Part shown: in pieces, positions 5,005 through 23,000 of the stretch
Layout: the number at the start of each line of letters is the position of its first letter
Numbering within the stretch: the stretch's first letter is position 1
Assembly: GCA_016432445.1 (NCBI GenBank)
Contig: CP066689.1
Span: 1,071,690 to 1,103,689 of the forward strand
Reading direction: 5' to 3'
DNA: 32,000 nucleotides
From: Candidatus Saccharimonadota bacterium
Lineage (GTDB): Bacteria > Patescibacteriota > Microgenomatia > UBA1406 > GWC2-37-13
Position numbers and translations under genes: made by a program
Notes under the pieces: model-generated
The model's input: the letters and a program-made list of their open reading frames with translations, nothing else
The model's database searches: none
What the model was told of the DNA's origin: nothing

Positions 5005-5109
5005 TTTCAAATGTCAAATTTCAAATTCCAAATCAAATCCAAAATCCAAATAACTAAATTACTTAACCTTAGTTGATATTTGAAATTTGAGCTTTGACAT
5101 TTGATTTTT
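5005..5109. repeat. Intergenic inverted repeat of TNNCAAA heptamer arrays
   Basis: The left array is tttcaaa tgtcaaa tttcaaa ttccaaa tcaaa tccaaaa tccaaata (5005-5052). The right arm gatatttgaaatttgagctttgacatttgattttt (5075-5109) is its imperfect reverse complement. Confidence 0.6.
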
Positions 5110-5187: not shown

Positions 5188-5364
5188 GAATATCATATTA
5201 TACGCCCAAAATACTACAAGATACTTGATATCTTTCTATATATTAAGGACATTGAAATAATTTCACGTTAAATAAAATAAATACAATTAAATTATTTTAT
5301 AGGCCTTATAGTGCCAGCTCCCGAATCTGTAAATAACTATATCACAATACTACCAAAATACCTC

Positions 5365-5394
5365 TTGACAACCTTTTTATAATTGTAATAGTAT
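5365..5394 (+). promoter_or_regulatory. Candidate promoter for 5403-5948, possibly giving a leaderless or very short-leader mRNA
   Basis: Exact TTGACA at 5365-5370, an 18-nt spacer, then TAGTAT at 5389-5394 (alternatively TAATAG at 5386-5391). The ATG lies at 5403, only about 9 nt downstream. It is a motif match only. Confidence 0.35.
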
Positions 5395-5402
5395 GAGAGT
5401 GT

Positions 5403-5948
5403 ATGCAACTACAGTATAATCAGTATAATTTTGAATCTTCTTTTAAAAACTATTTACTTGCGGAAAAAGTAAAACCTGTTACTTTAAAAAATTATCTGTC
5501 CGATTTAAGACATTTTTTGGGGTGGTTAACAATCCCATCTCACATCAATGTAGGGACAGGTCGCGACCTGTCCCTACCAGATGAAACGTCATTCATCACC
5601 CAAAATCTGACCTTAGAAACCCTTGAAAATTACAAGCAGTATCTTATATCAAACAACCTGCCTTTACTAACTGTAAACCGCCGCCTCTCTACTCTTCGTA
5701 AGTTTTGCACCTTTTGTATTTCTCAAGGATGGATGAAGGAGAACCCAGCGAAAAAAATTTCAAATGTCAAATTTCAAATGTCAAGTGCAGGGGTCGGGCG
5801 TGACCGACCCGAGACAATGGATGAGGCAAATATCGGATATGTATTAAAAAAATATAAAACATTCATTGAAAAAGAAGGCCTTTCCAACAATCAAATCGAT
5901 AAAAATATTACAGACGTGAAGGATTTTTTACAAATTATAAATTCATAA
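5403..5948 (+). CDS. Stand-alone phage-integrase N-terminal SAM-like (core-binding) domain protein; no catalytic domain
   Basis: 181-aa ORF with three copies of the x-Y-xx-[YF]-L...T...Y/L..L..F..W pattern: FKNYLLAEKVKPVTLKNYLSDLRHFLGWL, LENYKQYLISNNLPLLTVNRRLSTLRKFCTFCISQGW and LKKYKTFIEKEGLSNNQIDKNITDVKDFLQI. These are typical of tyrosine-recombinase core-binding domains. No R-K-H-R-H-Y catalytic region follows. Confidence 0.6.
   Translation: MQLQYNQYNFESSFKNYLLAEKVKPVTLKNYLSDLRHFLGWLTIPSHINVGTGRDLSLPDETSFITQNLTLETLENYKQYLISNNLPLLTVNRRLSTLRKFCTFCISQGWMKENPAKKISNVKFQMSSAGVGRDRPETMDEANIGYVLKKYKTFIEKEGLSNNQIDKNITDVKDFLQIINS
5550..5577. repeat. Perfect 28-bp palindrome inside the SAM-like CDS
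   Basis: gtagggacaggtcg|cgacctgtccctac is perfectly self-complementary (14+14). It is GC-rich within AT-rich coding sequence. It encodes VGTGRDLSLP, located between the first and second SAM-like units. Confidence 0.8.
5758..5810 (+). repeat. Heptamer array (tttcaaa tgtcaaa x2) followed by a GC hairpin, inside the SAM-like CDS
   Basis: tttcaaatgtcaaa (5758-5771) and tttcaaatgtcaag (5772-5785) form a direct 14-mer duplication. A hairpin follows: gggtcgg (5791-5797), loop gcgtga, ccgaccc (5804-5810). Together they encode ISNVKFQMSSAGVGRDRP. Confidence 0.75.
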
Positions 5949-6125
5949 AAATATGATACAGCTAACCTCGTTTGTCGGTAAAGGTTTGGGAACTTTAAGA
6001 TTTTTATTGGATCCTGCGGTTGAAGGAAATCCTTACGGATCTTCATTTCATAAAAGAAAAAAACAAACCACGGATAAACCAAGGACACCTCTTTTTCGAA
6101 GAAGATTGGCCTGGCGTTAATAAAT

Positions 6126-6180
6126 CCCCTCTTGTAAGAGGGGTCCGGCCATTGGCCGGGGGGTGTTTTCTTATGAAAAC
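6126..6180 (+). repeat. Truncated copy (3 hairpins) of the modular hairpin array seen at 7169 and 12796
   Basis: Hairpin 1 is cccctct-tgta-agagggg (6126-6143). Hairpin 2 is ccggcc-att-ggccgg (6145-6159). Hairpin 3 is gttttc-ttat-gaaaac (6165-6180). It has the same order and the same conserved flanks (atcccctct...agaggggt, ggggtgtttt) as the other two copies. Confidence 0.7.
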
Positions 6181-6390
6181 CATAAAACATATCTGGAATA
6201 AATGGGAAGGCTTAATAGCTTCGCTCATTTTGTGGCTTTCCAAAAAGACTAGATACAATGTAGATAATGAAAAAACGGATCATTTTATCACTTACCCCAA
6301 CAAAAGTGCTAACATTTTTCAAATTTTTTTCAATGCAGTTTCCAAGCTCCAATCCGTGAGAATCAGCTTTAAATCCGTTTTAATCTCTAT

Positions 6391-7032
6391 ATGAAAAATC
6401 AAAAGAAACAAACCCCACTTCGTCTCGTTAAGCAAGACTACGCGGGGCAAGCAATTTACGCTTTTATCGACAGCCAGAATGTCAATCTGGCAATCAAAGA
6501 CCAGGGCTGGGCACTCGATTTCGCCAGATTTAAAATATATTTAAAAGATAAATATCACGTTTCAAAAGCCTATTTGTTTATCGGCTTAATCCCAGGTAAT
6601 CAAAAACTTTATGATTTTCTTAAAAAAGCCGGATATATCCTTTTTTTCAAACCAACGCTGGAAATTAAAGACGGAAAAACTAATAAGATTAAAGGGAATG
6701 TGGATGCAGAATTAGTACTACATTCAATGATTGAGTACCCTAACTATGATAAGGCCATCATCGTAACGGGTGATGGAGACTTTTATTGCTTAGTGGAATA
6801 TTTGTTACAGAAAAATAAACTATTACGGGTAATCATACCTAATATAACTAAGTATTCCCGACTATTCTACAAATTTAATCCTTACTTGGCTTTTATGAAT
6901 AACTTAAAAAATAAGCTGGAGCATAAAAAAAGAGAGGCGTCACTTAGGCATGAAAGCCTTCAGTTGTCCTCTCATCGTAATAATATAAATATACCAAAAA
7001 TTAAAAAGAAGTCAAGCACAAAAAATGTCTGA
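6391..7032 (+). CDS. NYN domain (LabA/DUF88-like, PIN-fold) putative RNase
   Basis: 213-aa ORF. The motif order AFIDSQNVNL ... GNVDAELVLHSM ... AIIVTGDGDFYCLVEYL matches the acidic-residue layout of NYN/LabA-like domains. The C-terminal tail is basic. Confidence 0.75.
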   Translation: MKNQKKQTPLRLVKQDYAGQAIYAFIDSQNVNLAIKDQGWALDFARFKIYLKDKYHVSKAYLFIGLIPGNQKLYDFLKKAGYILFFKPTLEIKDGKTNKIKGNVDAELVLHSMIEYPNYDKAIIVTGDGDFYCLVEYLLQKNKLLRVIIPNITKYSRLFYKFNPYLAFMNNLKNKLEHKKREASLRHESLQLSSHRNNINIPKIKKKSSTKNV

Positions 7033-7056
7033 ACCGGCGCGCGCGCCCATCCAGAC
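7027..7056. other. GC-rich nested palindrome just after the NYN stop codon
   Basis: gtctg (7027-7031) pairs with cagac (7052-7056), enclosing the 12-nt alternating CG palindrome ggcgcgcgcgcc (7036-7047). No U-tract follows, so it is a weak terminator candidate at best. Confidence 0.3.
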
Positions 7057-7168
7057 AAGTTAATAACAGTTTACAAAAAAAATTATTATTTGTCAAGAAC
7101 GAATATGACTAAAAATCCTTTGATAAAAATCTGGTACAGGTGGGAAGGGGTGATTGAATCTTTCATAT

Positions 7169-7311
7169 CCCCTCTTCTTAAGAGGGGTGGACTCCGACGT
7201 AACGTCGGAGGACGGGGTGTTTTAAACAATAAAAACACCTCACCCCGCTCAGCGGGGGACTCCTCTTACAAAGAGGAGAATAATTCTGTCATCCCGCACT
7301 TGATGCGGGAT
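7169..7311 (+). promoter_or_regulatory. Six-hairpin structured leader upstream of (and overlapping the start of) the LamG giant gene
   Basis: The hairpins are: cccctct-tctta-agagggg (7169-7187); ctccgacg-taa-cgtcggag (7192-7210); ggtgtttt-N8-aaaacacc (7216-7239); ccccgc-tca-gcgggg (7243-7257); ctcctct-tacaa-agaggag (7260-7278, whose 3' arm carries AGGAG); and atcccgca-cttga-tgcgggat (7291-7311, which contains ATG 7303). Confidence 0.65.
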
Positions 7312-10300
7312 CTAGCGAAGCGTAGGCTTTTACTAATCTCTTTACTCATCATCCTCATCGGCCTGCCTATCGTCTTTCTTTCCCTGAAATATCAATCCAA
7401 AACCGAAGCCGCATGGTATAACGAAAACTGGACATATCGTCAAACTGTCGCTATCACCAACTCCGGCACTGCTCAAACTGATTTCCAAGTGTCTATCGGT
7501 ATCGGTACCTCCGCCTTAATTGTCTCTGGTAAAATGCAATCAGACTGTGATGACCTAAGAGTTACTGATATTAATGGAAAAATTCTGCCCTTCTGGATTG
7601 AGCCTACAACCTGCAATAACGCTACAAACAGCACAACAGTTTGGGTAAAAGCTCCCTCAATCTCAACATCAGGTACAACGCTTTATGTATACTATGGTAA
7701 TCCATCTGCCCCCTCCGGAGCCTCTGCCACCACCCAGGTTTTTATCAGGGAAATCAGCAACCTGCAGGGATCTTGGAACTTGGATGAATCCTCAGGCACC
7801 TCTATAGCTGATTCTTCCGGGAACGGCAACACCGGCACCCTGGCTAATGCCCAGGAAACAAACACCACTCTGACTGCCTCAACCTCAACCTCAATTTCTG
7901 ACACCAACAACGGCAATCTCTCAACTGGTCAGGGTTACGATCTCAATGGCATATATAATGGTATGACTTTAACCATGTCCGGCGCCAGCTGTAATGTTAA
8001 TGGCGAATCACGGACAATATCAGACTATACAGGAGCCACCAAAACTATTACTGTTTCCTCTGCCTTTTCCGCCACTCCCAATACTGCAAATTGCGGCTAT
8101 ACCATTAATCACCATATAGCAGGTAAATTTGGCAATGGTATGGCCTATGATGGAGCCATGGATGTCGGTGATCAAATCACCACCATCAACAATGCCGGAT
8201 TAAATATTACAGGCTCTTTGACAATGGAGTTTTGGATGAAGTTCCCAAGTGGCGCAGGAGGTTATTATAATGCATATATGGGTAAGAGTTCTGATAATTA
8301 TCTTATTCATTCTTATTATGGACAAGTTATATTCATAATTTCAAATGGCAGTTATAGCAGTAATTTTAATAATTGCCAGACTCCTACCAACTGGAATCAC
8401 TTTGTCGCTACCTGGGATGGTTCTACCAGGAGGACATATGCGAATGGCTCTCTGTGTACTTCCACTTCTGTGACAACAGCTCCTGCAAGTGATAGTGGAG
8501 GTATTACTATTGGATCAGGTGGCGCTCTTAATTGGCCAACAGTCATGGATGAGGCTAAAATTTATAACAAAGCTTTATCTCAAGCAGAAATTTCTGATTT
8601 ATATGGCACTGGGAGCAACCAGGGTTATACCACCAGTAACTATGCCAATAAAGTTTTGGTGAGAAAGTTTTCCTCATCAGTTTCTGTTGGTTCTCCGGGC
8701 AGTGAAACCCAGGGCCCGGGACCTGTTGGTTACTGGTCCTTTGACGACGGTCAGGGTACAGTCGCTCAGGATAAAAGTTCCTCCAAAAACAATGGAACAA
8801 TTTCTGGCGCTACTTGGACAACAGAAGACCAATGTATATCAGGCAAGTGTTTAAAGTTTGATGGTAGCAATGACGTTGTAACAGTTCCTGATAGTAATGC
8901 TCTTACCCCCACAGATATTACCTTCTCCATGTGGATAAAATCCCCAAGTATTACCGGCAGCCAAACCTTTTTAGGAAAATGGTATACCGGTACAAATCAA
9001 CGCTCTTATTACCTCTATACGGGCAGTTCTAATGTTGGTCTTTGTATTTCCAAAGATGGCACAGATCCAGGAGCTTCTTGCGCAGGTTCAGCCAACAATA
9101 CCCTGACTAATAATACTTGGTATCACATAACGGCCACCTATCATTATGTGACTGATGGGACTTCAGTGATCCAAATTTATATAAATGGCGTACTTAGCGG
9201 AAGCAGCTCAACCGTTGGAGGTCCTATATACAATAGTACAGGCAATCTTAATATCAGCACTTATGACGGAACAAACCAACCCTTCAATGGCTTCATAGAC
9301 GAACCTAAGATTTATCCTTATGCCCGGACTGCTGCCCAGGTCAAGACAGACTATAATTCGCGAGGATCTGCAGTAAAATCCGGTTCAGGCACTGCTTTAG
9401 GAGCAAAAAATCAAGATTATCTCTCCAACGGCCTGGTTGGCTACTGGAAAATGGATGAAACAGCTTCTCCTGCTGTTGATTCCTCGGGGAATGGAAATAG
9501 CGGCACCTGGACTGGCGATGCTACTTCTGCTGTTGGTAAGTTTGGGAATGGAGTAACTTTGGATGGAACAGGCGATTATGTATCTCTTGGCAACCCCGCC
9601 GTACTTCGCTATGGCAGCGCTATTACTTTAAGTGTCTGGGTTAAGCCCACTGTTACTTTACAAAGCGGATCTCCTGCTGAATCATTCATCCGTAAGGAAA
9701 GCGGTTGGAGCGGCTACGATCTTTTTTACGATGGTACCAATGGACGTATTATGGCTATCTTAGATAACGGAACTTTTAACGGTTATGTTACTTATAATAC
9801 TAACTTAACTGCTGGAACCTGGTATCACATAGTTCTGACCTACGATAATTCAACAGGAGTTATTTATGTCAACGGAGCGCAAGCCGCCAGCCGGTCTTTT
9901 GCTACCACAGTCGCAGACTCAGGCGTTAATCTTACCTTGGGAGCTGCTGACGGAGGTTCATCAGCCTTTAACGGAGTCTTGGACGAGGCCAGGATTTATA
10001 ACCGGGCCCTTTCACCTGGTGAGGTGAGCCAGCTTTACAACTGGGCCCCAGGACCACTAGCCTACTGGAATATGGACGAAGCCTCAGGCAATTTAACTGA
10101 CAGTTCAGGAAACGGATACACAGGTACAGCATCAAGCTTAACTGTTGTTCCTGGTAAATACGGCAAAGCAAGAAGCTTCAACGGGAGTTCTAGCACAGTT
10201 ACGGGATCTGTCAGTTTCAATGCTGGTTATACGGTTTCATTGTGGGTTAATTCTGCAGGAAACGCCAGCGGCACACAAATGATTTGGGAAGGACAAGATC

Positions 10301-12789
10301 TTTCTGCTCCATCATTGGAAGGTAATGATACTGGATACCTTTTTTACATGAACAATTCCAACAGTCTTAACACAGGAGCTTTAAGTACAAATCGCTGGTA
10401 TTATGTGACTGCCACCTATGATGGCTCAAATCAACGATTATATATTGATGGAGTTCTAAAAGGAACAAACACATCTGTTGCTTCTGATAGCGTAACCACG
10501 TTCTACCTTGCAAATAGAGCTGGTAATAGTCTTTATTGGAATGGAACTCTGGATGACGTCAAGATTTACAACTACGCCCGTACATCTAAGCAGATTGTCG
10601 AGGACATGAATGCCGGCCATCCGGCAGTCGGCTCTCCGGTTGGATCGGCTCTAGCTCATTGGAAATTCGATGAGGGATATGGCTCGACCGCAAATAATAG
10701 CGGTAATGGAGGGAACACTCTAAACGGCACTCTCGGCACCGGCTCCTCCGCCCCAACATGGACAAACAACGGAAAATTCGGCAAAGCTTTAAGTTTCGAC
10801 GGAACAAACGATTATGTCAGTATCCCAGATTCGGATGCTTTTAATTTTGGCACTGGAGATTTTACTATCAACTTATGGTTTAATAACGCAGGGACAACGG
10901 TTTCTTATCCTGCTTTAATAAGCACATACGGAGGGTGGTCAAGCGGGTCGTTTGGAATAAGGCATGATAATAACGGGGCTGCAAGTAAAGTTACAGTCCA
11001 CTGGAATCCAGTAGGAGATCCATTTATAACCTCCACGAATACTTTTGCAGACAATACATGGAATTATGTCTCTTTAGTCAGATCAGGAACATCGTTTACC
11101 CTGTATGTAAATGGCAAGATTGAGGGGACAGGGACATCGGCAACTGCTTTGGACTTGGCTTATGGAGGAAATGTTGATATTGGTTGGGGTCCGTGGGATG
11201 GCGCAAGTGGTTATTGGAAAGGTTTAATTGATGAGGTTAAAGTTTACAACTATGCCCTAACTGCTGATGAGGTCAAGCTTGATTATAACAGAGGTTCTTC
11301 TTTAGTTTTAGGTTCACTTTCTGTAAATACAGGCAATACAGCGCCCATTTCTGCCGCTTCTCAAGAATACTGCGTGCCCGGTGACTCCACCTCCTGCGCC
11401 TCACCAGTTGGACAGTGGGATTTTAACGAAGGCGTTGGAGCAACCGCATTTGACACGTCCGGCAACGGCAATGTCGGTTACTGGAACGGCACCGGCTCCC
11501 ACTGGACAAATGGAAAATATGGCAAAGCCGGCAACTTTAACGGTAGTGACGATTATGTTTCCACGAGCTCTACTTTTGAAACAACTAGTGCTACTTGGGA
11601 AGTATGGATAAATCTTAATAACTTCACCGCAACAGGAGGATATAGTCCTCATATACTCTATCAAGCTGATGGGAGTGGTGCTCATGAAACCAGAATAGTT
11701 GTTAATACTAATGGCACTGTTGCTTGGAATGTTTATTCTACCTCTTACCAATGTCAATTAACATCAACAACAACATTAGCAATAGGTAATTGGTATCATA
11801 TTGCAAGTCAATATGGTGCAAATGGATGCAATCTTTATATTAATGGGGTAAGAGAAGCTAATAATTCTACTACTAACGGCCCAGGAACTGGTGCTGTCAG
11901 ATTTGCGATAGGTAGGTTAGATTTCAACTCAACAGGCTTTACTAATGGCAAAATTGATCAAGTCCGGATTTTTGACTATGCCCGGAGTGCGGCCCAGATT
12001 GCCTGGGATTATAACCGGGGCGGGCCGGTTGGCTGGTGGAAGCTGGATGAAGGACAAGGCTCGACTGCTTTTGATTCATCAGGCATTGGAAATACTGGAA
12101 GTATTAATATTGGAGCTTCAGGAACTCAAACCTCAATCGGCACAGGCAGCAGCGCCGGCACAGCTTGGGGCAATGGAGTAACTGGAAAATTTAACTATTC
12201 TTTAAATTTTGACGGGACAGATGATTTTATTGGTCTGGGCAGTAGTGTTCCTTCAGCATTGCAGATTCAAAATGAGATTACTCTTTCTGCCTGGATTTAT
12301 GCTACATCCTACCCTGCTTCCGATACTCTAAGCATGATTGTCGGCAGCCAGAATGATACTAATACACAGGGCATAAGCATCTTTTTGGACGGCAGAACGA
12401 ATCCTGATAGCCAAACATCACCGGCAGGACACATTCATTTTCAGATAGGTGACGGCTCATGGCACACAACTAACGCTAACGCTGCTGTTTCTCTTAATCA
12501 GTGGGTTCATATTGTTGCCACAAGAAAAGCTAACGAAAACGCCAAGATTTATTACAACGGCGTCCCGCAGCCTATAACCAGTGTCGCTTGGACAGGAGCC
12601 ATCACTTATACGGCTGCACAGCTTAACATAGGCAGACAAAGGGATGCCAGCGGAAGTACGTACCGCTATTTTAATGGTCAAATTGATGATGTGAAAATAT
12701 TCAACTATGCCTTAACAGCAGACCAGGTTACAAATTTATATAACGGCGGGGCGGCCTTGAGATGGGGACCGAATACAGGTAGTCCGTAG
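7303..12789 (+). CDS. Membrane-anchored giant surface protein: TM anchor + DUF2341 + seven LamG (Laminin_G_3 / concanavalin-A-like lectin) repeats
   Basis: The ORF track frame is 7090..12789. I place the start at the in-frame ATG 7303, giving MRDLAKRRLLLISLLIILIGLPIVFLSL (basic N-terminus plus TM), because 7090-7302 is the hairpin array. DUF2341 signature: WTYRQTVAITNSG...DCDDLRVTD..G..LPFWIE...TTVWVKAPSIS..GTTLYVYYGNP (about 7429-7720). Seven units begin with W-x-[FLM]-[DN]-E..G....D.SGNGN.G and end with [FL][ND]G.[IL]D[ED].[KR][IV][YF]N.AL[ST]. Confidence 0.85.
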   Translation: MRDLAKRRLLLISLLIILIGLPIVFLSLKYQSKTEAAWYNENWTYRQTVAITNSGTAQTDFQVSIGIGTSALIVSGKMQSDCDDLRVTDINGKILPFWIEPTTCNNATNSTTVWVKAPSISTSGTTLYVYYGNPSAPSGASATTQVFIREISNLQGSWNLDESSGTSIADSSGNGNTGTLANAQETNTTLTASTSTSISDTNNGNLSTGQGYDLNGIYNGMTLTMSGASCNVNGESRTISDYTGATKTITVSSAFSATPNTANCGYTINHHIAGKFGNGMAYDGAMDVGDQITTINNAGLNITGSLTMEFWMKFPSGAGGYYNAYMGKSSDNYLIHSYYGQVIFIISNGSYSSNFNNCQTPTNWNHFVATWDGSTRRTYANGSLCTSTSVTTAPASDSGGITIGSGGALNWPTVMDEAKIYNKALSQAEISDLYGTGSNQGYTTSNYANKVLVRKFSSSVSVGSPGSETQGPGPVGYWSFDDGQGTVAQDKSSSKNNGTISGATWTTEDQCISGKCLKFDGSNDVVTVPDSNALTPTDITFSMWIKSPSITGSQTFLGKWYTGTNQRSYYLYTGSSNVGLCISKDGTDPGASCAGSANNTLTNNTWYHITATYHYVTDGTSVIQIYINGVLSGSSSTVGGPIYNSTGNLNISTYDGTNQPFNGFIDEPKIYPYARTAAQVKTDYNSRGSAVKSGSGTALGAKNQDYLSNGLVGYWKMDETASPAVDSSGNGNSGTWTGDATSAVGKFGNGVTLDGTGDYVSLGNPAVLRYGSAITLSVWVKPTVTLQSGSPAESFIRKESGWSGYDLFYDGTNGRIMAILDNGTFNGYVTYNTNLTAGTWYHIVLTYDNSTGVIYVNGAQAASRSFATTVADSGVNLTLGAADGGSSAFNGVLDEARIYNRALSPGEVSQLYNWAPGPLAYWNMDEASGNLTDSSGNGYTGTASSLTVVPGKYGKARSFNGSSSTVTGSVSFNAGYTVSLWVNSAGNASGTQMIWEGQDLSAPSLEGNDTGYLFYMNNSNSLNTGALSTNRWYYVTATYDGSNQRLYIDGVLKGTNTSVASDSVTTFYLANRAGNSLYWNGTLDDVKIYNYARTSKQIVEDMNAGHPAVGSPVGSALAHWKFDEGYGSTANNSGNGGNTLNGTLGTGSSAPTWTNNGKFGKALSFDGTNDYVSIPDSDAFNFGTGDFTINLWFNNAGTTVSYPALISTYGGWSSGSFGIRHDNNGAASKVTVHWNPVGDPFITSTNTFADNTWNYVSLVRSGTSFTLYVNGKIEGTGTSATALDLAYGGNVDIGWGPWDGASGYWKGLIDEVKVYNYALTADEVKLDYNRGSSLVLGSLSVNTGNTAPISAASQEYCVPGDSTSCASPVGQWDFNEGVGATAFDTSGNGNVGYWNGTGSHWTNGKYGKAGNFNGSDDYVSTSSTFETTSATWEVWINLNNFTATGGYSPHILYQADGSGAHETRIVVNTNGTVAWNVYSTSYQCQLTSTTTLAIGNWYHIASQYGANGCNLYINGVREANNSTTNGPGTGAVRFAIGRLDFNSTGFTNGKIDQVRIFDYARSAAQIAWDYNRGGPVGWWKLDEGQGSTAFDSSGIGNTGSINIGASGTQTSIGTGSSAGTAWGNGVTGKFNYSLNFDGTDDFIGLGSSVPSALQIQNEITLSAWIYATSYPASDTLSMIVGSQNDTNTQGISIFLDGRTNPDSQTSPAGHIHFQIGDGSWHTTNANAAVSLNQWVHIVATRKANENAKIYYNGVPQPITSVAWTGAITYTAAQLNIGRQRDASGSTYRYFNGQIDDVKIFNYALTADQVTNLYNGGAALRWGPNTGSP

Positions 12790-12795
12790 TGAAAT

Positions 12796-12891
12796 CCCCT
12801 CTTTGCAAGAGGGGTGGATTCCGCCAAAGGCGGAAGACGGGGTGTTTTATAAAACACCTCGGCCTTCGGCCACTCCTCTTACAAAGAGGAG
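12796..12891 (+). promoter_or_regulatory. Five-hairpin structured leader in the 109-nt gap between the LamG gene and the fibre gene; the last hairpin pairs the SD
   Basis: The hairpins are: cccctct-ttgca-agagggg (12796-12814); ttccgcc-aaa-ggcggaa (12819-12835); ggtgtttt-at-aaaacacc (12841-12858); ggcc-ttc-ggcc (12861-12871); and ctcctct-tacaa-agaggag (12873-12891). AGGAG at 12887-12891 lies 7 nt before ATG 12899. Confidence 0.7.
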
Positions 12892-12898
12892 AATAAAA

Positions 12899-15800
12899 AT
12901 GGACAATATTAACAAAGACACAATTAGAAAATATATACAGACGTTAAAAGAACGTGGAGAGGCTGATGTGACTATAAAATCTAAGCTATCCTCTATTGAG
13001 AGATTCCTCAACTGGGCTTATAAACAGCACTTTATAGATCTTGAAAATTTTGAGCAAATGAAAAATGAGATTGATAACGTGACAATGTCAAATGTCAAAT
13101 GTCAAATGTCAAAAATGGGAGAGGGAGCGGGGCAAAACCCCAAGGATGATTCACGATTCATGATTCAGGATTCAGGAAAGCTAGGTGTCATTGCGAGCGA
13201 TCCGCCGACTGGCGGAGAGCGCGGCAATCCCATCAAGAGATTGCTTCAGTCGCTTCGCTCCTTCGCAATGACAATGAAGGGTCGAAATGACAAAGAATCA
13301 GTCAGAATGACTAAGATCTCAGATCAAAGATCTAAGATCGAAAATCGAACATCGAATATCGAACTGGGTATCCAACACTATCTCGGCTTTGCGATTTTTG
13401 TTATTTTTATGTCTGCTTTGGGCGTAGGGCTTTATAATCAGTTCTTTAAGAAAGTAGCCACTCCATTCGCTTACCCTTCTTCTCCCACTAAAGGGGCACG
13501 GACGTTATCTTTTCAAGGAAGATTAACTGACAGTCTGGGAAATCCTATCACGACTGCAACAAACTTAAGTTTCAGACTTTACAGCACTGGCACAGGCGCC
13601 ACCTCTCCCAACCTTTACTCAAGCGGTACTTGCGCTATCACCCCTGATGCGGACGGAATATTTTCAACTTTAATTGGCCAAGACTGTGGATCGGAAATCG
13701 GCAGTGATGTTTTTACAGAAAATGCCAATGTGTATTTAGGGATTATGGTCGGCACTGATGCGGAGATGACTCCCCGTCAGCAAATCGCTAATGTTGGATA
13801 CGCCATGAATGCTGAGACTTTGCAAGGTTTACCTGTTGGCACCGGTACGACCGTGCCTTTTATCCCTTTTGTAAATTCAACAGGAGTTTTACAGATTGTG
13901 GCGGCTTCTCCTAAAATACAATCCACGTCCGGTACATTTACCATTGAAGGAGTTGCATTGAGTTTGACCACGCCTTCTGGATCAAACGGAAATATTAATC
14001 TTATGCCTGACGGAACAGGTAATGTCGGTATTGGCACTACTGCCCCAGGCGCCAAATTACAAGTTAATGGAACTGTCAAAATTGTTGACGGCACTCAATC
14101 CTCAGGCTATGTATTAACCTCTGATGCTAATGGTCTGGCCTCCTGGACTGATGTTTCCTCTTCTGCCGGACCCTGGACATTAACCGGAAGCAATCTTTAT
14201 CCTGATGCCACAACTTACAATGTGGCCATCGGCGCCACCAATGCCGGCACAGCAAAATTATATGTTAATGGCAATGTTGGCATCGGGACAACCTCTCCTT
14301 TAGCTAAATTAGAAATTGGGAGTGGACAGATTTTTGTTCCTAATGGGAGCTACGCAGCCCCTTCATATTCTTTTAGTAATGATCCTGATACAGGAATTTA
14401 TCTAAACGGTAATGATTCTGGCAAAATAAGTTTTAGCACACAAGGAGCAGTAACATGGGAAATGACTGGTGATTTCTTTGGAAGTGCCAATGCTGGAGGA
14501 GCATACTTGACGAGTGCAACAGCTACTTCCACAACGCCCTCTATTGCTTTTAGAGGAGATGCTAATACAGGTTTAGGTTTTGCAGGTGCAGACATACTTT
14601 CTCTTATCGCTGGCGGAACCAACACCATGAATATAACCGGCGGCAACGTCGGCATCGGGACAACGAATCCAGGATATAAATTAGAGGTTGCAGGAGATAG
14701 TTCCTGGATTCATTTAGATGGTGGTAATGCAGGTTTGTACTCTGACAGAGGTGTAACAAACGATACTTCTGCCGTTTACTTCCAAACAGCAGGAACAACG
14801 AATTATATTGTAGGTGTTGGAGCTTATACTACAGGAACAAGATTTGATATCGGAAGCGCAAGCAGCTCATTTTTGACTATAGATACAAATGGTAATGTGG
14901 GTATAGGCAACACTAATCCTCAAGCAATGTTTGTAGTTGGTGTTGGTGTAACCACACCTTTCCAAGTCACTTCAACCGGAGATATTACAAGAATTAAAAG
15001 CATCACTTACAGCTGGCCTTCTGCTCAAGCCTCAACTGCGGGAAGTGTATTATCTAACGATGCAACAGGTGGACTCTCATGGACTAGTAATGCTTCTGTT
15101 GGCCCATGGACTTTATCAGGATCAGATCTTTTCCCTGACCTTGAATCTTACAACGTGGGTATTGGTACAACCACCGGAGCCGGCACTGCCAAACTTGCCG
15201 TCATGAACGGTAATGTCGGTATTGGAACAACGAATCCAAATTACATACTACATTTGAGAAAATTAGTAGCTGGAGATCTCGGTCCAACTTTATTCCTTGA
15301 CAATCCAGGCGGTGCGGCGGGCGATAAAGCTAATATAGACTTTGGTAGTACTCCAGGACCTACTACGAAAGCACGAATTCAATGGAATCAGGTGGCAAGT
15401 GGAAATGCAGAACTTTACTTTATGACAGATATCTCTGGAACATTAGCCAGCAGATTAATGATAAAAGACGGAGGAAACGTCGGTATTGGGACTACAAATC
15501 CTTCATCTTTTAAATTAGAAATGGCGGGGAATGTTGGACCGTCAACAAGCGCGGCTTATGACTTGGGTTCTGATACAAGAAGATGGGCAAATGTATATGC
15601 TAACAATCTCTGTCTGTCAGGAACTTGTGAATCTACCTTTGCTGATCTTGGTCCATGGGATTTGATTGACTCCAACCTCTTCCCTGATGCCACAACTTAC
15701 AATGTGGCCATCGGCGCCACCAATGCCGGCACAGCTAAACTTTATGTTAATGGTTTAGTAGGGCTAGGTACCACTGCTCCCACTTATGGCCTGACTATCA

Positions 15801-16540
15801 ACTCATCTTCTCCTGCGCTTGAATTTAGATACAACGAAACAACAGCTGGTTGGATAGGACATGCGTCTTCTCTTATTAGTGGCGGCGGAACAACTGATAT
15901 GGGTGTAAGAGCTGAATCAGGGAAAAACTTATTGTTTGGTATAGGTACGGCAGAAAAAATGAGAATCAATAGTGACGGCTACGTCGGCATCGGGACAACG
16001 AATCCAAGTTACCAATTAGAAGTTGTTGGCCTTACTGCTATAAAACCTTATTCTGCCACTGATGCTAGACTGATATATTTACACGCAAATAATGGTCAGA
16101 CAGCAATAGGACTTTATGACTCAAATAGTCAAAATCGAGCATATCTTTGGGGGACTGACCTTAGTGGAGGCGGTGGAAGTCTCATTTTACGAGACACTGG
16201 CTCTAATATCATGACTTATTTAAGTGCTTCAGATAAATCGTACATTACCGGTGGTAATCTTGGTATCGGCACCACTAATCCATTTGGAATGCTCCAAGTA
16301 GGCGCCACCAACTCACCTTATGTTCCAGCCTTGTTTGTCTCCACAGGTGGAAATATTGGAATTGGTACGACCAACCCTACCAGACAACTGACGATCGGCG
16401 GATCGGGTCAAATAAAGTTTTCAGGAGACTCTGACCATTATATTTATGATGAAGACGAAAATCCAAGAATCTATATTAAAAATGCGCCTCTCAAATTACC
16501 AATGCTCTTCCAACTCAATTTACATCTTCAGGTGATGTAA
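12899..16540 (+). CDS. Fibre gene, segment 1: cytoplasmic integrase-SAM-like module + repeat-derived linker + TM helix + extracellular GNVGIGTT-repeat fibre
   Basis: The track ORF is 12803..16540. I start at ATG 12899, which is preceded by AGGAG-N7. The N-terminus reads DTIRKYIQTLKERGEADVTIKSKLSSIERFLNWAYKQHF (SAM-like pattern). The TM helix is LGFAIFVIFMSALGVGLY. About 11 G-N-[VIL]-G-I-G-T-T-x-P-x-x-K-L-x-V motifs follow. It ends in an out-of-frame tail (APLKLPMLFQLNLHLQVM*) created by an indel at 16484-16491. Confidence 0.8.
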   Translation: MDNINKDTIRKYIQTLKERGEADVTIKSKLSSIERFLNWAYKQHFIDLENFEQMKNEIDNVTMSNVKCQMSKMGEGAGQNPKDDSRFMIQDSGKLGVIASDPPTGGERGNPIKRLLQSLRSFAMTMKGRNDKESVRMTKISDQRSKIENRTSNIELGIQHYLGFAIFVIFMSALGVGLYNQFFKKVATPFAYPSSPTKGARTLSFQGRLTDSLGNPITTATNLSFRLYSTGTGATSPNLYSSGTCAITPDADGIFSTLIGQDCGSEIGSDVFTENANVYLGIMVGTDAEMTPRQQIANVGYAMNAETLQGLPVGTGTTVPFIPFVNSTGVLQIVAASPKIQSTSGTFTIEGVALSLTTPSGSNGNINLMPDGTGNVGIGTTAPGAKLQVNGTVKIVDGTQSSGYVLTSDANGLASWTDVSSSAGPWTLTGSNLYPDATTYNVAIGATNAGTAKLYVNGNVGIGTTSPLAKLEIGSGQIFVPNGSYAAPSYSFSNDPDTGIYLNGNDSGKISFSTQGAVTWEMTGDFFGSANAGGAYLTSATATSTTPSIAFRGDANTGLGFAGADILSLIAGGTNTMNITGGNVGIGTTNPGYKLEVAGDSSWIHLDGGNAGLYSDRGVTNDTSAVYFQTAGTTNYIVGVGAYTTGTRFDIGSASSSFLTIDTNGNVGIGNTNPQAMFVVGVGVTTPFQVTSTGDITRIKSITYSWPSAQASTAGSVLSNDATGGLSWTSNASVGPWTLSGSDLFPDLESYNVGIGTTTGAGTAKLAVMNGNVGIGTTNPNYILHLRKLVAGDLGPTLFLDNPGGAAGDKANIDFGSTPGPTTKARIQWNQVASGNAELYFMTDISGTLASRLMIKDGGNVGIGTTNPSSFKLEMAGNVGPSTSAAYDLGSDTRRWANVYANNLCLSGTCESTFADLGPWDLIDSNLFPDATTYNVAIGATNAGTAKLYVNGLVGLGTTAPTYGLTINSSSPALEFRYNETTAGWIGHASSLISGGGTTDMGVRAESGKNLLFGIGTAEKMRINSDGYVGIGTTNPSYQLEVVGLTAIKPYSATDARLIYLHANNGQTAIGLYDSNSQNRAYLWGTDLSGGGGSLILRDTGSNIMTYLSASDKSYITGGNLGIGTTNPFGMLQVGATNSPYVPALFVSTGGNIGIGTTNPTRQLTIGGSGQIKFSGDSDHYIYDEDENPRIYIKNAPLKLPMLFQLNLHLQVM
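13085..13112 (+). repeat. Four perfect tandem copies of heptamer ATGTCAA inside the CDS
   Basis: Perfect atgtcaa units at 13085-13091, 13092-13098, 13099-13105 and 13106-13112. They encode MSNVKCQMSK. The unit length is not a multiple of 3. Confidence 0.9.
13148..13175 (+). repeat. Four tandem heptamers GATTCAN inside the CDS
   Basis: Units gattcac, gattcat, gattcag, gattcag, encoding DSRFMIQDS. Confidence 0.85.
13187..13272. repeat. 86-nt compound palindromic element inside the CDS
   Basis: Perfect 10-bp terminal inverted repeat: gtcattgcga (13187-13196) and tcgcaatgac (13263-13272). There is an internal hairpin tccgcc-gact-ggcgga (13201-13216). It encodes VIASDPPTGGERGNPIKRLLQSLRSFAMT. 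I recall peptides of this flavour as translated repeat elements in many uncultivated-bacterium proteomes. Confidence 0.75.
13323..13371 (+). repeat. Seven degenerate tandem heptamers (NANATCN) inside the CDS
   Basis: Units aagatct, cagatca, aagatct, aagatcg, aaaatcg, aacatcg, aatatcg, encoding KISDQRSKIENRTSNIE. They lie immediately before the TM helix. Confidence 0.8.
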
Positions 16541-17016
16541 GTATTGCTTATGATATTAACTTCACCAATCCAACCGCATCCTACATCAAGTCTCAAGCTC
16601 CTTTTTACATTCAATCTGGTGAATCTTTTGCTTCAAGTGACTTAACATTGGCAACATACAACTCCGGTGATTTAATGATGGATATTGGTGGAACCGGTAC
16701 AGGCACAGGAACGATTAAATTTTATGACTCCAATGTTAAAGGCGCCTCAACCACAACCGCTATCGCCTTCTCTGACTCATCATCTGACGTTAATCAATAC
16801 CGAACTAACTACACTGATGAAACTATCATTGGAGCTTTAAATGAAGTCTATGCCGCCGCACTTGGATCTTCCGGTTTCTGGCTTGACGGAGGAGATTACC
16901 TTTACCCCAACTCAACTTATGCAACCAATATCGTTGCTACCACTGGAAGAATTGGAGTCGGCACAACCAATCCATTCGGTATGTTACAGGTTGGAGCCAC
17001 CAACTCTCCTTATGTC
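16304..17016 (+). repeat. Intragenic cassette D, copy 1 (713 bp), carrying the frame-breaking indel
   Basis: Homologous to 28581-29330 with scattered, mostly third-position substitutions. The one major difference is that 8 nt (gcgcctct, 16484-16491) replace 45 nt of the other copy. Confidence 0.9.
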
Positions 17017-20000
17017 AATGACCCAAATGTAACCTCAGCCGTAACTGCGGTTTTAGACTCAGCCAGCGATGGCGGTGATGGGTATGGAAGCGGGATAACA
17101 TTTAACAGGATGCGGGGGACAATACCCAGTCCTACGGCAAACCAGGCAGGAGATACAATTGGTCAACTTATTTTCCAAGGTCGCACAGATGCCAGACACT
17201 CAGCAGCTGCAATCTATGCTGATGCCGATACCGGCTGGGGGGCAACCGGAACTGATTCACCGGGAAGGCTTAGATTTTTTACTACCCCTGACGGCTCAAG
17301 CACTTACGCAGAAAGAATGAGAATAGACAATCAAGGTAATGTCGGTATTGGGGATGCTTCTCCGGCATATCTTTTTACAGTTGGTGATGGAGATTTGTTT
17401 GGGGTTAACTCTTCAGGGTATGCCCTTTTGCCAGCCGGGGCAGCAACTACCCCATCTTTAACATTCACGGGGGACACAAATACCGGACTTTATAGTACAG
17501 CTGCAGATAAATTGGGTCTGGTGGCAGGCGGGACAGAGACAATGACAATCACAAATGGCAATGTCGGTATTGGGACAACTAATCCAAGCGAGAAACTTGT
17601 AGTTCAAAAGGCAGCTATTACTCCGGGAACTGTAACCTCTTATCATCTGGGTATTGGAGTAGGAACCGAGGGTGATGCTACTTTGACTCTGGGAGCAGAT
17701 AGTTCCTATGCTTACCTACAAAGCTGGAACAACAGGCCTCTACAAATAAACAACCAAGGAAATAACGTTATCTTCAATGCTACAGGTGGTAATGTGGGTA
17801 TTGGAACAACTAGTCCAGGGGAAAAGTTAGAAATAGAAGATAGTGGGGCAGCAAGGATTCTTATAGACGCAGGGACAACAGCACAAATTTATCTTGACAG
17901 AGGGGGTAATAGTAATGCTGATAGCTCTATAAATTTTCTAACCGCTGGTACAGATAAGTTTTCTATCGGGTTAGATAATGACAATACAGATAATTTCTAT
18001 ATAGCAAATGGGTCTATGACTGAGGCGAATAAAAAGGTCACAATAGATACCTCCGGCAATGTGGGTATCGGGACAACGGGGCCGGGGGCAAAATTAGATG
18101 TCAATGGGCATCTTAATGTGGGCGATACATTTTCTAACCCCGATGGCTATAATAAATTGATTAGAGTAGGCGACCCCTCTCATGCAAAAATCGTCGTTCA
18201 GGTTGGAACAAAAATAGGCCAATTAGTCACTGAATCTGACTGGTCTTATTTCCAGCTTGGCGCAAGATCAAATGACGATTTGCGGCTTATAGCTAATAAT
18301 GCTAATATTATGTCATTGACAACAACTGGCAACGTCGGCATTGGGACGACTAACCCTGCGAATAAACTGGAAGTAGTTGTTGGAACCAATAAACGAATTG
18401 CCATTGATGGTAACTTGGATTGGTCTTCATACTTTGGAGATCTTTCCACCCAAGGCCCAATTATTAGATTTTCTAGACCAAGTGATGGTGATTTTCTGGG
18501 TTTGATTGGTACTTATAATACTGCTGGTGGCAGAAACAACCTAGCCCTTTCCTCAAGAAATGATATTGTCTTTGATAGTGAAAATGGAACAGAAACCATG
18601 AGACTACAAACCGGCAATGTCGGTATTGGGACAACTGCACCATCCTTTAAACTTGAAGTGGCTGGAAATATTGGGCCGGATGCTAATGCCACAAGAGATA
18701 TTGGATCATCTGCCAGACATTACAGTACAATTTATGCTGACAATATCGTTGGTACCGGAGCTTTAGGTTATTGGAATAGAAATTCCACCTCCGGATATCT
18801 GTATCCGGCTACCATCACTGATTCTCTTGGTATCGGCACCACTAGTCCTTTTGGAATGCTCCAAGTAGGCGCCACCAACTCCCCTTATGTACCAGCCCTG
18901 TTTGTTAACAACGCTGGTACTAACGTGGGCATCGGGACAACAGCTCCTGCTTATAAATTAGATGTTAATGGATCGATAAGAGCCACTGAAGCTGATTGGG
19001 GCGCTGGAGGTCTTACTGTCTTTATGGGAGCTACAAATGCAGGCTCTCTTGGCACAACTGGCTCAGGGAGATTTGCTTTAACTGCAAGTGGTTCTGTAAA
19101 TGGCATGTATCTTTCAGGAGGAGGATCAAATATTGATTTTGCTTCCAATGCTCTAAATTTTAACAGTTCAGCCATGGTTCTCGACGCAGGGGGCAACTTA
19201 GGAATTGGAACTGCAACCCCAGGAAGTAAGTTTGTGGTTATGGGTGGCAATGTTGGCATTGGGACAACGAGTCCGTATGCTCTTGTTGATACCAATTTAC
19301 AGATAGCCAATTTTACAAGCGGGAATGCCAGTGCTTTAGAGCTTCTTGGAAATAGGACTACCGCAAGTGCACAGGTGGGACAAATCGCATTTCAAAATCA
19401 ACAATCTACAACTGCGAGTAAAGTTATTGCTAATATTCAAGGTATTACTGATGGAACCTATGATGCAGAATCAGGAGCCTTATCATTTTGGACAGCTAAC
19501 ACTGCTGGCACACTTTCTGAACAGGTCAGAATAACAAGTAACGGCAATGTCGGTATCGGAACAACTAATCCAGGACATGCTCTTGATGTTAATGGTGCTG
19601 TCAACATTGCAATTAATACTCCATATAGAGCCGCCGGTAATGCTATTTTAGGAACAGCCTCAAGTAGTGATACTTATTTAAGATCTTACAACGATGACAT
19701 TTTCTTTCAAGATTCATCTGGAAATAATTTAGCGGCAATCACAGATACAGGAAATTTAGGTATCGGAACTACTACACCAACTACTAAACTCTCCTTTGCA
19801 GGTTCTGCTGATGGATATGATGCTATCGATGTAGGAGGCACAGCTGGTAAACAATGGGGACTGTATTATGACCAAGGATCTTGGCTTGCAAGCCTTTTCA
19901 GTATTGATGAATTTTCATCCGATGGTTCGAGAACTCCTAGGCTAACGATTAACAACGGTAATGTTGGTATCGGGACAACGGCGCCGAGTGCACCACTTCA

Positions 20001-23000
20001 TGTTTGGGGAACTAATGGAGTAGTCGATATTGGCAAAGATGGCACTGGACAAAACTGGCTCAGGTTGTTTGGAACAAACTCAGATACTTACATAGAAGCA
20101 GATAGTAATGATGCTTACTTTACTACCAATGCAACTCATGCCTCTGGTGGATGGACTATTCCAGGTTCTGCTTTCAGCAGCTGGGCCATAGAAATGACAA
20201 GTAAAAATACCAGCGGAGAGAAATTTACTATTTATCACTCTGATCAAAGTTCAGCAACATTTAGTGAACGGTTCGTTATAGATGAAAATGGCAATGTAGG
20301 CATTGGGGCAACTAATCCGTCATCCTTTAAACTTGAAGTAGCGGGAAATATTGGGCCTGACGCTAATGCCACAAGAGATATTGGATCATCTGCCAGACAT
20401 TACAGTACAATTTACGCCGACAATATCGTTGGTACCGGAGCTTTAGGTTATTGGAATAGAAATTCCACCTCCGGATATTTGTATCCGGCTACCATCACTG
20501 ATTCTCTTGGTATCGGCACCACTAGTCCTTTTGGAATGCTCCAAGTAGGCGCCACCAACTCCCCTTATGTACCAGCCCTGTTTGTTAACAACGCTGGTAC
20601 TAACGTGGGCATCGGGACGACTAATCCAACCAGTTCATTACAAATTGCAGGTTCTACTCCCAGAATAGATATTGGTACCGGAATAAGCGGTGATTCAGCT
20701 GGTATTCTATACATACATAATTATAGTGCCGGACAAGATCGGCCTATGATTCTTCAACCTAATGGTAGCCCAGCAGGAATAGTCATGGCTGCTCCTTTCA
20801 CTATTCAAGGTAACTCTTTAACCTTTAATTATCATAATGGCTCTGCATATGTTGCCGGTCTTTCCATAGCTCAAACTTCAGGTGATGTCTATATTGCTCA
20901 AAATGGCGGCAACGTCGGCATTGGGACAACGGGACCGGATACAAAATTACATTTGTATGAAACTTCTGGCGCCTTGGTTGCAAAATTAAATTCTACAGAT
21001 ACTACAAGTTATCAAGCTATTGCTTTATTGGAAAGTGGAACAGGTAGTTACATAGAGCATATGAATAGCGCACATCCAACGGTAGCAAGAAGGAACAATC
21101 TTGAGCTTTATAACCAAACTGCGACTGGGGGTATAACTTTCCATACTGCAAACAATACGACGCCCAAAATGGTGATTGATTATCTCGGCAACGTTGGCAT
21201 TGGGACAACGGCGCCGAATGCTCCTTTAGAAGTTGTGGGCAATCTTTACGGAACAGGATTAAATGATCAGGGGGTTTATTTTAAAGATTCCACAACTGCT
21301 GCTCAAAATGTTGGTGGAAGTATCCTTTTAATGGGTAAAACCGGAACCGGAGACAATTATGCAACTTATGGAGAAATTCACGGAGGAAAAGAAAATGCGA
21401 CGGCAGGAAATTATGCTTCTTACTTGAACTTTGCTACCAGAGCTGATGGCGGAGCAGTAACAGAACAGATGAGAATTAACTCAAATGGCAACGTGGGCAT
21501 TGGGACAACTGCTCCAGCAGCTAAACTTCAGGTAGCTGGAGACCATATTCTCATTGATAACCTCAAGACATTTTCTGGCAAAAATACAAGTGGGACAGGT
21601 GTAGGGTTAATTGGCATTGACGATGGTAATGCTATCAATATTAATCGCAATGGGGCTGCTGTATCTACTGTTGTGAACATCGGTGCAAGTGATGGTATAT
21701 ATTTTATGGACAATTTTACTACTTATAATATGACAATTAAAGGAACAGGCAATGTAGGCATTGGGACTGATACCACCCCTGATTATCTTCTTGAACTCTA
21801 TGATGCTACTAATACCCCCACCTTTGCCCTGTCTGATGATGATGTAGCCCATTCATTTACAGATTTAGCCAATGCTGATACTTTTGCTCATCTCACTTCC
21901 CTTTCTACCACTGCAGGAGGGGCTCTTTTTCAATCATTCTCTGATGGTGATGCTTCAGGGTTTAACTTAAAAGTAGGTATTGGTACTACCGATCCTACAG
22001 ATTCTACCCCGGCCATTAAATTAATTGGAGGGAAATTATCTGGGACTACTTTAGGAGACCTGGCTGCAACTGAAACAGTATTGCAAATAGCTAACAATGA
22101 TGATGCAGCTGCTTTAACTATCCTGGGTAATGGCAACGTCGGCATCGGGACAACTAATCCGTCATCCTTTAAACTTGAAGTAGCTGGAAATATTGGGCCT
22201 GACGCTAATGCCACAAGAGATATTGGATCATCTGCCAGACATTACAGTACAATTTATGCTGACAATATCGTCGGTACCGGAGCTTTAGGTTATTGGAGTA
22301 GAAATTCCACCTCCGGATATTTGTATCCGGCTACCATCACTGATTCTCTTGGTATCGGCACCACCAATCCATTCGGTATGCTCCAAGTCGGCGCCACCAA
22401 CTCCCCCTATATTCCAGCTTTGTTCGTTAACAGCGCTGGTACTAACGTGGGCATCGGGACGACAGGGCCTTCTGCTCTTTTGCACCTCTACAAAACTGGT
22501 GCTAATGCTGATATAACCCTGGATACTACAGGAGATGCAGATAGATATAACAGACTATATTTCAATGCCGCCCGGGGCAGTAACGGACAAACTGTTGGTC
22601 AACTTAGCTTTAATAATGGCGGGGCAACTCCTGTAGCAGAGATTATTGGTATAAGAAGTGCAACTGCTACAACAGGATTTTTGAGTTTTTTTACAAGTAA
22701 TTCTGAGGCAATGAGAATAAGCAGTACAGGTGGACTATCACTGGGGTCAACCTATGTCAGCACAGACCCAGGGGCAGGAGCAATGATAGTAAGCGGCAAT
22801 GTCGGCATTGGGACAACCGGGCCAACTTATAAATTAGATGTTAGTGGTACAGCTCGGATTAACTCTACTACCAGCACCCTTCTTGATTTAACAAGCACCC
22901 AAACTTATGCTCAAATGCAATTTATTGAAGGCTCCACGACCAGAGGATATTTTGGTTATGGTGACAGTGGTGGAGTTTTAACTAATGCCTTACCAGATTC

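Follow-up and report, generated by a model that had tools for sequence, protein, structure and literature searches.

Why would the gene of a giant surface fibre begin with a piece of a site-specific recombinase? The question is raised by a stretch of 32,000 nucleotides (nt) from a Candidatus Saccharimonadota bacterium (contig CP066689.1, positions 1,071,690 to 1,103,689; the whole stretch is called the window hereafter). There, a fibre gene starting at 12899 encodes a small helical module akin to the SAM-like core-binding (CB) domain of tyrosine recombinases, followed by a repeat-rich linker, one transmembrane helix and a very long fibre-like region, and a soluble SAM-like protein is encoded upstream, from 5403. 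The original prediction, made from the sequence alone, had noticed both genes, had suspected a link between them and had offered three functions for the module: a membrane-tethered regulator, a scaffold-docking module or a domain recognising the hairpin elements around these genes. The answer that we reach, and that we regard as reasonably probable, is that the fibre tail is half a domain of a former recombinase, and that the soluble protein carries the other half, the two re-forming one domain that docks a complete domain to the fibre.

The following features of the window are needed for the argument; A to D are the four helices of a CB domain, and primes mark the copy that is split over two polypeptides:

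5403-5948, forward strand: stand-alone SAM-like protein of 181 residues, with a complete A-B + C-D domain (residues ~7-118), a linker and an A'-B' hairpin
12899-16540, forward strand: fibre open reading frame (ORF) 1, 1213 residues, whose stop lies 19 codons past a 37-nt deletion at 16484
12899-13081, forward strand: fibre residues 1-61, made up of the SAM-like/core-binding half C'-D' and a third helix; conserved N-terminally in split-type fibres
13082-13378, forward strand: variable, presumably cytoplasmic linker (residues 62-158), mostly repeats, with heptamer arrays and a palindromic element
13379-13435, forward strand: single transmembrane helix (signal anchor), YLGFAIFVIFMSALGVGLY, residues 161-179, mean Kyte-Doolittle value 2.0
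13484-13828, forward strand: first, probably extracellular beta domain (RTLSFQGRLTDSLGNPI...), conserved, with near-invariant columns R201-Q309, in 451 species-level genome loci

The core-binding domain and its two halves

Relatives of the locus were surveyed by scanning one genome per species. This yielded 451 loci encoding the conserved fibre domain, the best 80 of which were analysed with a hidden Markov model (HMM) of the stand-alone SAM-like family; below, related loci bear labels in L and homologous proteins labels in P. The Pfam family Phage_int_SAM_1 is PF02899, with 83 profile positions and a gathering cut-off of 22.3 bits.

A GAGGAG Shine-Dalgarno sequence stands upstream of the ATG at 12899, and both Pfam and NCBIfam bear out a SAM-like module at the very start of the fibre. 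PF02899 matches residues 2-43 (DNINKDTIRKYIQTLKERGEADVTIKSKLSSIERFLNWAYKQ) with an E-value of 2.6e-5 and 24.9 bits, over profile positions 41-82/83 only; this score depends on the query, since residues 1-184 give 24.9 bits and the whole 1213-residue ORF gives 20.5 bits, under the cut-off. Phage_int_SAM_5 reaches 22.3 bits on the same N-terminus, which is also matched by positions 42-97 of the NCBIfam model XerC and positions 39-94 of XerD. Because every alignment covers the second half of the domain only, the fibre starts with helices C-D and not with a whole four-helix domain, no complete PF02899 domain being found within the fibre chain; the identity first given to the module thus holds, its completeness does not. 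An AlphaFold model based on an alignment of 57 homologues places helices at residues 6-18, 23-42 and 48-73, with a predicted local distance difference test score (pLDDT) of 92-97. Submitted to Foldseek, a model of the 330 N-terminal fibre residues returned weak matches to beta domains, and the three-helix module, too small within such a multi-domain model, went unmatched.

As predicted, no recombinase catalytic domain follows the module: at E<=1, Phage_integrase (PF00589) was found neither in fibre ORF 1 or the first 1000 residues of ORF 2, nor in the 5403 product, and the XerC and XerD models align to fibre and 5403 product over their first ~100 positions only. Being devoid of the catalytic domain with its R-K-H-R-H/W-Y site, the two proteins are therefore not recombinases or integrases. 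The OmpR-type winged helix was likewise without a match in the Pfam and NCBIfam searches of both proteins. The names ‘site-specific integrase’ and ‘XerD’, which databases give to these catalytic-domain-free proteins, are a recurrent mis-annotation.

The 5403 product had been described as three SAM-like modules and nothing else. Three helix hairpins are indeed there, but they read as one and a half domains, i.e., the complete domain and an extra A'-B' hairpin at residues ~141-180 (nt 5823-5942). The protein is matched by PF13102 (E 3e-11), by PF02899 (E 2e-9, 38.1 bits) and by XerC over positions 3-99, with a loop insertion. When its AlphaFold model (pLDDT 84) is compared with the Protein Data Bank (PDB) by Foldseek, the check that had been suggested for it, the top 50 matches comprise nothing but tyrosine recombinases and CB domains of these, with template-modelling scores of 0.71 for 3nrw and 0.70 for 2oxo; a sequence search of the PDB with the family profile gives one weak match only, 2key at E 7e-4. 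Stand-alone homologues of this type number 272, mostly of 150-210 residues, and a database entry labelled Candidatus Roizmanbacteria (P0073) is identical to the 5403 product. An exhaustive profile search recovers 245 cluster representatives at E<=1e-30, in which stand-alone proteins span profile positions 1-170 and long proteins (680-4715 residues) match with their N-terminus only, over positions ~1-125 to 1-163. Two stretches, KNYLSDLRHF (helix B) and NRRLSTLRKF...ENPAKK (helix D), vary little or not at all across 51 sequences, and the mean net charge of the complete AB-CD domain is +6.2.

Several observations bring the extra hairpin and the fibre module together. The third hairpin of the stand-alone proteins is of the A-B type and is a near-repeat of the first in P0148 and P0177 (TIKNYLSDLRHFLGW), the family HMM aligns fibre N-termini with its C-D columns, and in less diverged lineages the fibre N-terminus still resembles helix D of Xer proteins (STIKRRLSTLRKFCDWA...NPF in L088). 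When A'-B' and C'-D' of the window are joined, they produce a single PF02899 match over positions 11-82 (35.6 bits), whereas C'-D' alone scores 24.9 bits, A'-B' alone has no match and putting C'-D' first yields 28.6 bits, confined to positions 41-82; the pair from L003 behaves in the same way, joined and alone. Moreover, the mean charges of the halves are complementary (-3.0 for A'-B', +4.8 for C'-D'), and unsplit two-domain forms exist (P0044, L062, L076).

We propose that a core-binding domain lost its enzyme and was taken over as the cytoplasmic tail of a giant fibre anchored in the membrane with a type-II (N-in) topology. The A-B half missing from the fibre would be the C-terminus of the soluble 181-residue protein, A'-B' and C'-D' would assemble non-covalently into one four-helix domain, and this docking would put the complete, near-invariant and basic Xer-like domain at the cytoplasmic base of the fibre. 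About 40% of the related species would reach the same end state covalently, with a complete domain fused ahead of the transmembrane helix.

The distribution of the two genes speaks to their association. With fibre residues 1-330 as query, 72 homologues were retrieved, many of them covering the query fully and bearing precomputed SAM-like Pfam marks; where named, almost all belong to the candidate phyla radiation (CPR)/Patescibacteria (Roizman-, Woese- and Shapirobacteria, Microgenomates and others), the few outlier names being Methylococcales, Marinimicrobia and Pacearchaeota. These homologues begin with a half domain (P0001, P0002, P0004, P0011), a full domain (P0006, P0007, P0015, P0025; 60.7 bits over positions 4-83 in P0015) or two full domains (P0044), and every variant goes on with a variable linker, the conserved transmembrane helix and the RILSFQGRLTD domain. 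Among the loci, 78 of the 80 have a SAM-like sequence ahead of the transmembrane helix, so that the architecture that had looked odd in one genome, a SAM-like module, a membrane helix and an FQGRLTD fibre, is found recurrently in related ones. The split type, with a separate upstream SAM-like gene and a fibre whose N-terminus is of the C-D type, accounts for 47 loci and is also that of the window; 26 are fused with a strong full domain, 5 are divergent fused forms and 2 stayed unassigned. The suspected link between the 12899 and 5403 genes is thus stronger than proposed: they form a conserved pair in 47 loci and a fused ORF in 31. Of the three functions first suggested, scaffold docking is the best supported, a membrane-tethered DNA binder being a further possibility.

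In L001-L007, the fibre gene directly follows the SAM-only gene and starts with a half-module like that of the window. An orthologous LamG giant gene stands between the SAM-only and fibre genes in the window, L015, L017 and L040, the window having a small ORF and an NYN-domain gene there besides; the first description of the 5403 gene as lying upstream of another giant surface gene holds for the window, while in close relatives it lies directly upstream of this fibre gene. An intron or recoding across the gap between the paired genes was considered and is ruled out by several stops in the linking frame, as well as by a conserved small protein encoded there. In the literature searched, we found no description of SAM-like-only proteins linked to CPR surface fibres, nor of an exapted recombinase domain in a membrane-tethered, split-domain context.

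Topology of the fibre protein and continuation of the fibre

Hydropathy, AlphaFold and the repeat arrays agree on the order proposed for the region after the module, namely a repeat-derived linker and then one transmembrane helix. The linker holds a perfect AATGTCA x4.3 heptamer array at 13084-13113, other period-7 arrays at 13148-13177 and 13311-13364, and a palindromic element at 13186-13275, in frame (RNA fold -42 kcal/mol, z -4.4). In the AlphaFold model it is largely disordered with one short helix, pLDDT falling below 50 at residues 85-109 and 127-138, and its sequence and length are different in every homologue; it behaves as a tolerant spacer taking in mobile repeats in frame. The palindromic element resembles miniature inverted-repeat transposable elements, as does another at 400-485; its translation (VIASDPPTGGERGNPIKRLLQSLRSFAMT) is partly predicted as helix, and similar peptides occur in loops of P0093, P0172 and L078.

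The transmembrane helix (residues 158-184 in the AlphaFold model, pLDDT ~95) is followed by an all-beta region (residues 200-300, pLDDT 93-97), and no second hydrophobic segment is found by Kyte-Doolittle analysis in the 1213-residue ORF. It lies ~40 residues N-terminal of the FQGRLTD motif in 80 of 80 relatives, all of which have a region of 100-300 residues ahead of it, with a mean net charge of +9.8 (positive in 76 of 81). No N-terminal signal sequence was found on the fibre protein and no hydrophobic segment in the 5403 product. We infer an N-in topology, with the SAM-like module in the cytoplasm and the fibre outside, from the lack of an N-terminal signal sequence, the long, basic, folded region before the helix, the partner without a hydrophobic segment and the beta-rich, fibre-like C-terminal part, together with the Peptidase_S74 and Shufflon_N marks on the giant protein of L003. 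The module had been predicted to face the cytoplasm, and all of this indirect evidence falls on the same side.

Beyond ORF 1, the fibre goes on in two further frames:

16540-27543, forward strand: fibre continuation in another frame, a 3631-residue ORF with GNVGIGTT repeats
27504-32000, forward strand: third fibre-type open frame, entered by a frame change near 27504 and running off the window end

The thousands of extracellular residues announced for this gene are borne out insofar as fibre-type frames continue, but these do not make a single unbroken ORF, the frame changing at 16484 and at ~27504. At the first break, 37 nt are missing by comparison with a paralogous copy at 28677-28940 (28761-28797 in the copy; 90%-identical stretch). 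The three open frames amount to >6,300 codons combined, and uninterrupted relatives reach 3,000-3,700 residues. A pseudogene, variation within the population or a misassembly of repeats could account for the breaks.

Operon signals, repeats and possible roles of a docked domain

If the two halves do meet, the complete AB-CD domain would be the conserved business end of the assembly. In the structures of Cre, XerD and lambda Int, Xer-type CB domains touch DNA via helices B and D. Since the helix B and D signatures of the 5403 family are those of Xer CB domains, nucleic-acid binding is the most economical guess; it is speculative that the docked domain binds a nucleic acid, most likely DNA, and that the promoter region of its own operon is the best candidate. 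An invariant surface leads one to expect an invariant ligand, and the promoter, which is conserved over the same species, is for this reason a better candidate than the variable repeats. Three elements of the operon matter here:

5336-5402, forward strand: conserved operon promoter, ACTATATCACAATA, then CTCTTGACA (-35, 5362-5370), an 18-nt spacer and TAGTAT (-10, 5389-5394), ahead of ATG 5403
5415-5429, forward strand: two perfect -10-like hexamers (TATAAT-N3-TATAAT) in codons 5-9 (YNQYN) of the 5403 gene, the only exact match in the window
5953-6120, forward strand: small conserved gene, 55 residues, motif LDPAVEGNPY and tail RRRLAWR, unannotated, directly after the 5403 gene

In most of the 64 related loci with CTCTTGAC, the promoter block precedes the start codon by a fixed 39-42 nt (41 nt in the window), and the operon mRNA is leaderless or nearly so. 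The leaderless arrangement CTCTTGACA-N17/18-TAnnnT-N6-8-ATG is a general promoter type, found before other genes too in these genomes; CTCTTGACA, tried as an operon-specific signal, was ruled out as such, being a general -35 signature. What is specific to the operon is the upstream block (ACTATATCAAAATA), the spacer (TTATTATTATTGTTTTA) and the TATAAT pair. At <=1 mismatch, the pair occurs 6 times in the window vs. 0.48 expected; it has the same relative place in L010-L089, and in divergent lineages it falls within the 5' untranslated region. In the motif (YNxYN, codons 5-9), 216 of 220 codons end in T, vs. 721 of 1106 in the rest of these genes (p 2e-30). This codon bias and the untranslated position in divergent lineages indicate a nucleotide-level element, perhaps a sigma-dependent pause site, or else an operator, heading a very long operon. 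As for the small gene, its amino acids are conserved over 26 loci while third codon positions vary freely, which makes it protein-coding; its motif occurs in split loci and in 0 of the 31 fused ones, and the gene has no match in Pfam.

Six points weigh against the split-domain reading and its extension to nucleic acids. The HMM gain on joining the halves is modest (~7-11 bits), and the contact between A'-B' and C'-D' comes from sequence comparison, not from physical evidence. Some fused forms have A'-B' without any C'-D' (P0015/L023, L039, L058), so pairing is not obligatory everywhere and A'-B' can be unpaired. The net charges flanking the transmembrane helix (+0.9 on the N side, +1.2 on the C side) do not discriminate between orientations, which is why the N-in topology depends on indirect arguments. 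Conserved ~12 residues past the transmembrane core, the motif (L/F)AYP could, as a processing site, make the tether of the fibre transient. Finally, the CB domains of Xer, Cre and lambda Int generally bind DNA weakly when deprived of the catalytic partner.

The (L/F)AYP motif also enters a different explanation, rather improbable in our view, by which the module and its partner would aid export and act during synthesis of the giant chain only, perhaps by holding or targeting the nascent N-terminus at Sec, a role that the extended signal peptide region has in very large autotransporters and TpsA proteins; the N-terminal segment would then be cut at this site. The module does sit where long signal-peptide extensions sit, before the sole hydrophobic segment, the A-Y-P motif is conserved, and the association is specific to giant secreted proteins. 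Yet 12 residues from the hydrophobic core is a long spacing for signal peptidase I, position -3 is often a disfavoured P, and the neighbouring LamG giant protein, in which no SAM-like module was found, does without one; moreover, a holding role leaves the near-invariant exposed basic residues of helices B and D unexplained. These residues bear equally on the idea of a pure protein scaffold, in which the fold would serve protein contacts only, e.g., by bundling the inner ends of (probably trimeric) fibres or by binding a further cytoplasmic factor, with no nucleic acid involved. A protein-protein relationship is shown by the split/fused pattern, a third conserved small protein is present in split loci only, and the giant protein of L003 bears Peptidase_S74 and Shufflon_N marks, which are typical of oligomeric fibres; but the invariant residues are precisely those defining helices B and D of Xer core-binding domains, and the complete domain is strongly basic (+6.2). 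We consider this scaffold without nucleic acid improbable too.

The third function first suggested, recognition of the hairpin and heptamer elements around these genes, has to be judged against the repeats themselves:

5755-5784, forward strand: in-frame heptamer array (AAATGTC/AAATTTC), straight after the ENPAKKI end of the C-D module
6121-6170, forward strand: G+C-rich hairpin block after the small gene (-23.9 kcal/mol, z -2.5), resembling 12792-12848
12790-12898, forward strand: array of nested hairpins before the fibre gene, including its Shine-Dalgarno sequence (RNA fold -56.5 kcal/mol, z -7.9)

Such elements are abundant beside and inside the genes, and period-7 arrays stand directly past the ENPAKKI motif in several other species too. 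However, the heptamer unit varies by species (AAATGTC, AAAATTC, AACATCC, ACCAACC and others) while the candidate recognition helices on the domain surface are near-invariant, and an array of this type lies near the genes in just 21 of 81 loci, which makes such recognition very improbable. The arrays may allow slipped-strand phase variation: as the 7-nt unit is not a multiple of 3, adding or losing one would turn off the fibre gene. Inverted heptamer arrays also occur in intergenic hairpins at 4191-4274 and 5003-5104. Lastly, it is hardly credible that the module is a functionless relic (a decayed recombinase fused by repeat-mediated rearrangement, or a stretch bypassed by an internal Met start before the transmembrane helix), in spite of the mobile-looking repeats in the linker and the frame breaks in the fibre gene itself, given that the N-terminal module is conserved in 47 species and the full domain fused in 31 more, that AlphaFold folds the module at pLDDT >92 from the homologue alignment, and that the 5403 family, of conserved length, has so many cluster representatives (245 at E<=1e-30).

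The surroundings of the pair can be described briefly. The similar G+C-rich hairpin blocks (AAATCCCCTCTTnnAAGAGGGG...GGGGTGTTTT) at 6121-6170 and 12792-12848 bracket an inserted block, 6173-12789, with a small ORF, an NYN-domain (putative RNase) gene at 6391-7032 and the LamG giant gene at 7090-12789; the nominal N-terminus of the 7090 ORF seems to include the translation of a further hairpin-block copy. The NYN-domain gene, between the SAM-only and LamG genes, is probably an insertion, most split-type loci having a short intergenic gap without a gene of this type; the gap of L089 has an ORF of ~190 residues. The LamG giant protein (1899 residues) comprises seven Laminin_G_3 repeats and a DUF2341 domain, with a transmembrane helix at residues ~79-99 of the nominal ORF, whose true start is likely a Met at ~7303; in L017 and L040, its place is taken by an orthologue of 34% identity. 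An amphipathic W-E-G motif (IWNKWEGLIASL, IWYRWEGVIESF, FWEGVKRRL) recurs at 6173-6394, at 7105-7180 and in the linker of P0007; present in short cytoplasmic N-terminal regions of neighbouring proteins and in linkers of the fused type, it is perhaps a docking motif that they share. Upstream, a cluster at 829-4783 is syntenic with L001-L009 and encodes proteins of 489, 335 and 309 residues and a divergent Big_1 protein, the 335-residue one having a weak match of the WxL-interacting-protein type; in relatives, a cluster like this one comes after ComEA/ComEC competence genes and PaaX-like regulators. The whole window has no match in Rfam at gathering thresholds, and no tRNAs were found in it.

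Significance and known systems

CPR/Patescibacteria are ultra-small episymbionts whose host attachment and communication are largely unknown, and among the candidates for host contact, their giant surface proteins come first. For a widespread fibre family (451 loci, a recombinase-derived domain in 78 of the 80 examined), our results offer a testable handle on the inner end of the fibre. The domain comes with a soluble partner dedicated to it and with a third, small protein, which points to an undescribed link between the cell interior and the surface fibres. The results also supply a clear example from nature of two genes sharing the parts of one small helical domain, which other lineages have joined up again, and correct the naming of catalytic-domain-free proteins as integrases or XerD. 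It is a more tentative idea, and one that we hold to be possible but doubtful, that DNA is coupled to the inner end of host-contact fibres via a domesticated recombinase domain, covalently or by the split domain. If true, it would make a membrane-tethered nucleic-acid-binding system of a new kind, the DNA being the promoter/TATAAT-pair region of the operon or another conserved chromosomal site, and it would tie fibre assembly or engagement to the transcription of a very long operon, or else to how DNA is positioned or taken up at the contact site.

Four kinds of known systems invite comparison. The closest in fold is the CB domain of tyrosine recombinases (XerC, XerD, XerA, lambda Int, Cre; PF02899, PF13102, PF13495), which has the same four helices and, in its Xer-type form, the same helix B (N-Y-x-x-D-L-x-x-F), helix D (N-R-R-L-S-x-L-R-x-F) and ENPA end; unlike these enzymes, the proteins of the window have no catalytic domain, one copy of the domain is split over two polypeptides, and a transmembrane helix and a giant fibre are attached. 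The same fold is also known in isolation from the stand-alone domains 2key, 2kob, 2kd1 and 3nrw of structural genomics, but these are fragments or relatives of full recombinases, with no known link to a membrane or a fibre. In its inferred topology, the fibre protein is like the regulators ToxR, CadC and TcpP, which combine an N-terminal cytoplasmic domain of a DNA-binding type, one transmembrane helix and an extracytoplasmic C-terminal part; theirs, however, is an OmpR-type winged helix with a small periplasmic sensor, whereas here a core-binding fold, whose DNA binding is suggested by sequence likeness, precedes a fibre of thousands of residues. Finally, the extended signal peptide region of very large autotransporters and two-partner-secretion exoproteins is likewise an N-terminal extension ahead of a hydrophobic export segment, but it is an unstructured stretch of ~25 residues removed with the signal peptide, whereas the family described here has one or more folded, conserved domains within 60-300 residues, and a soluble partner.

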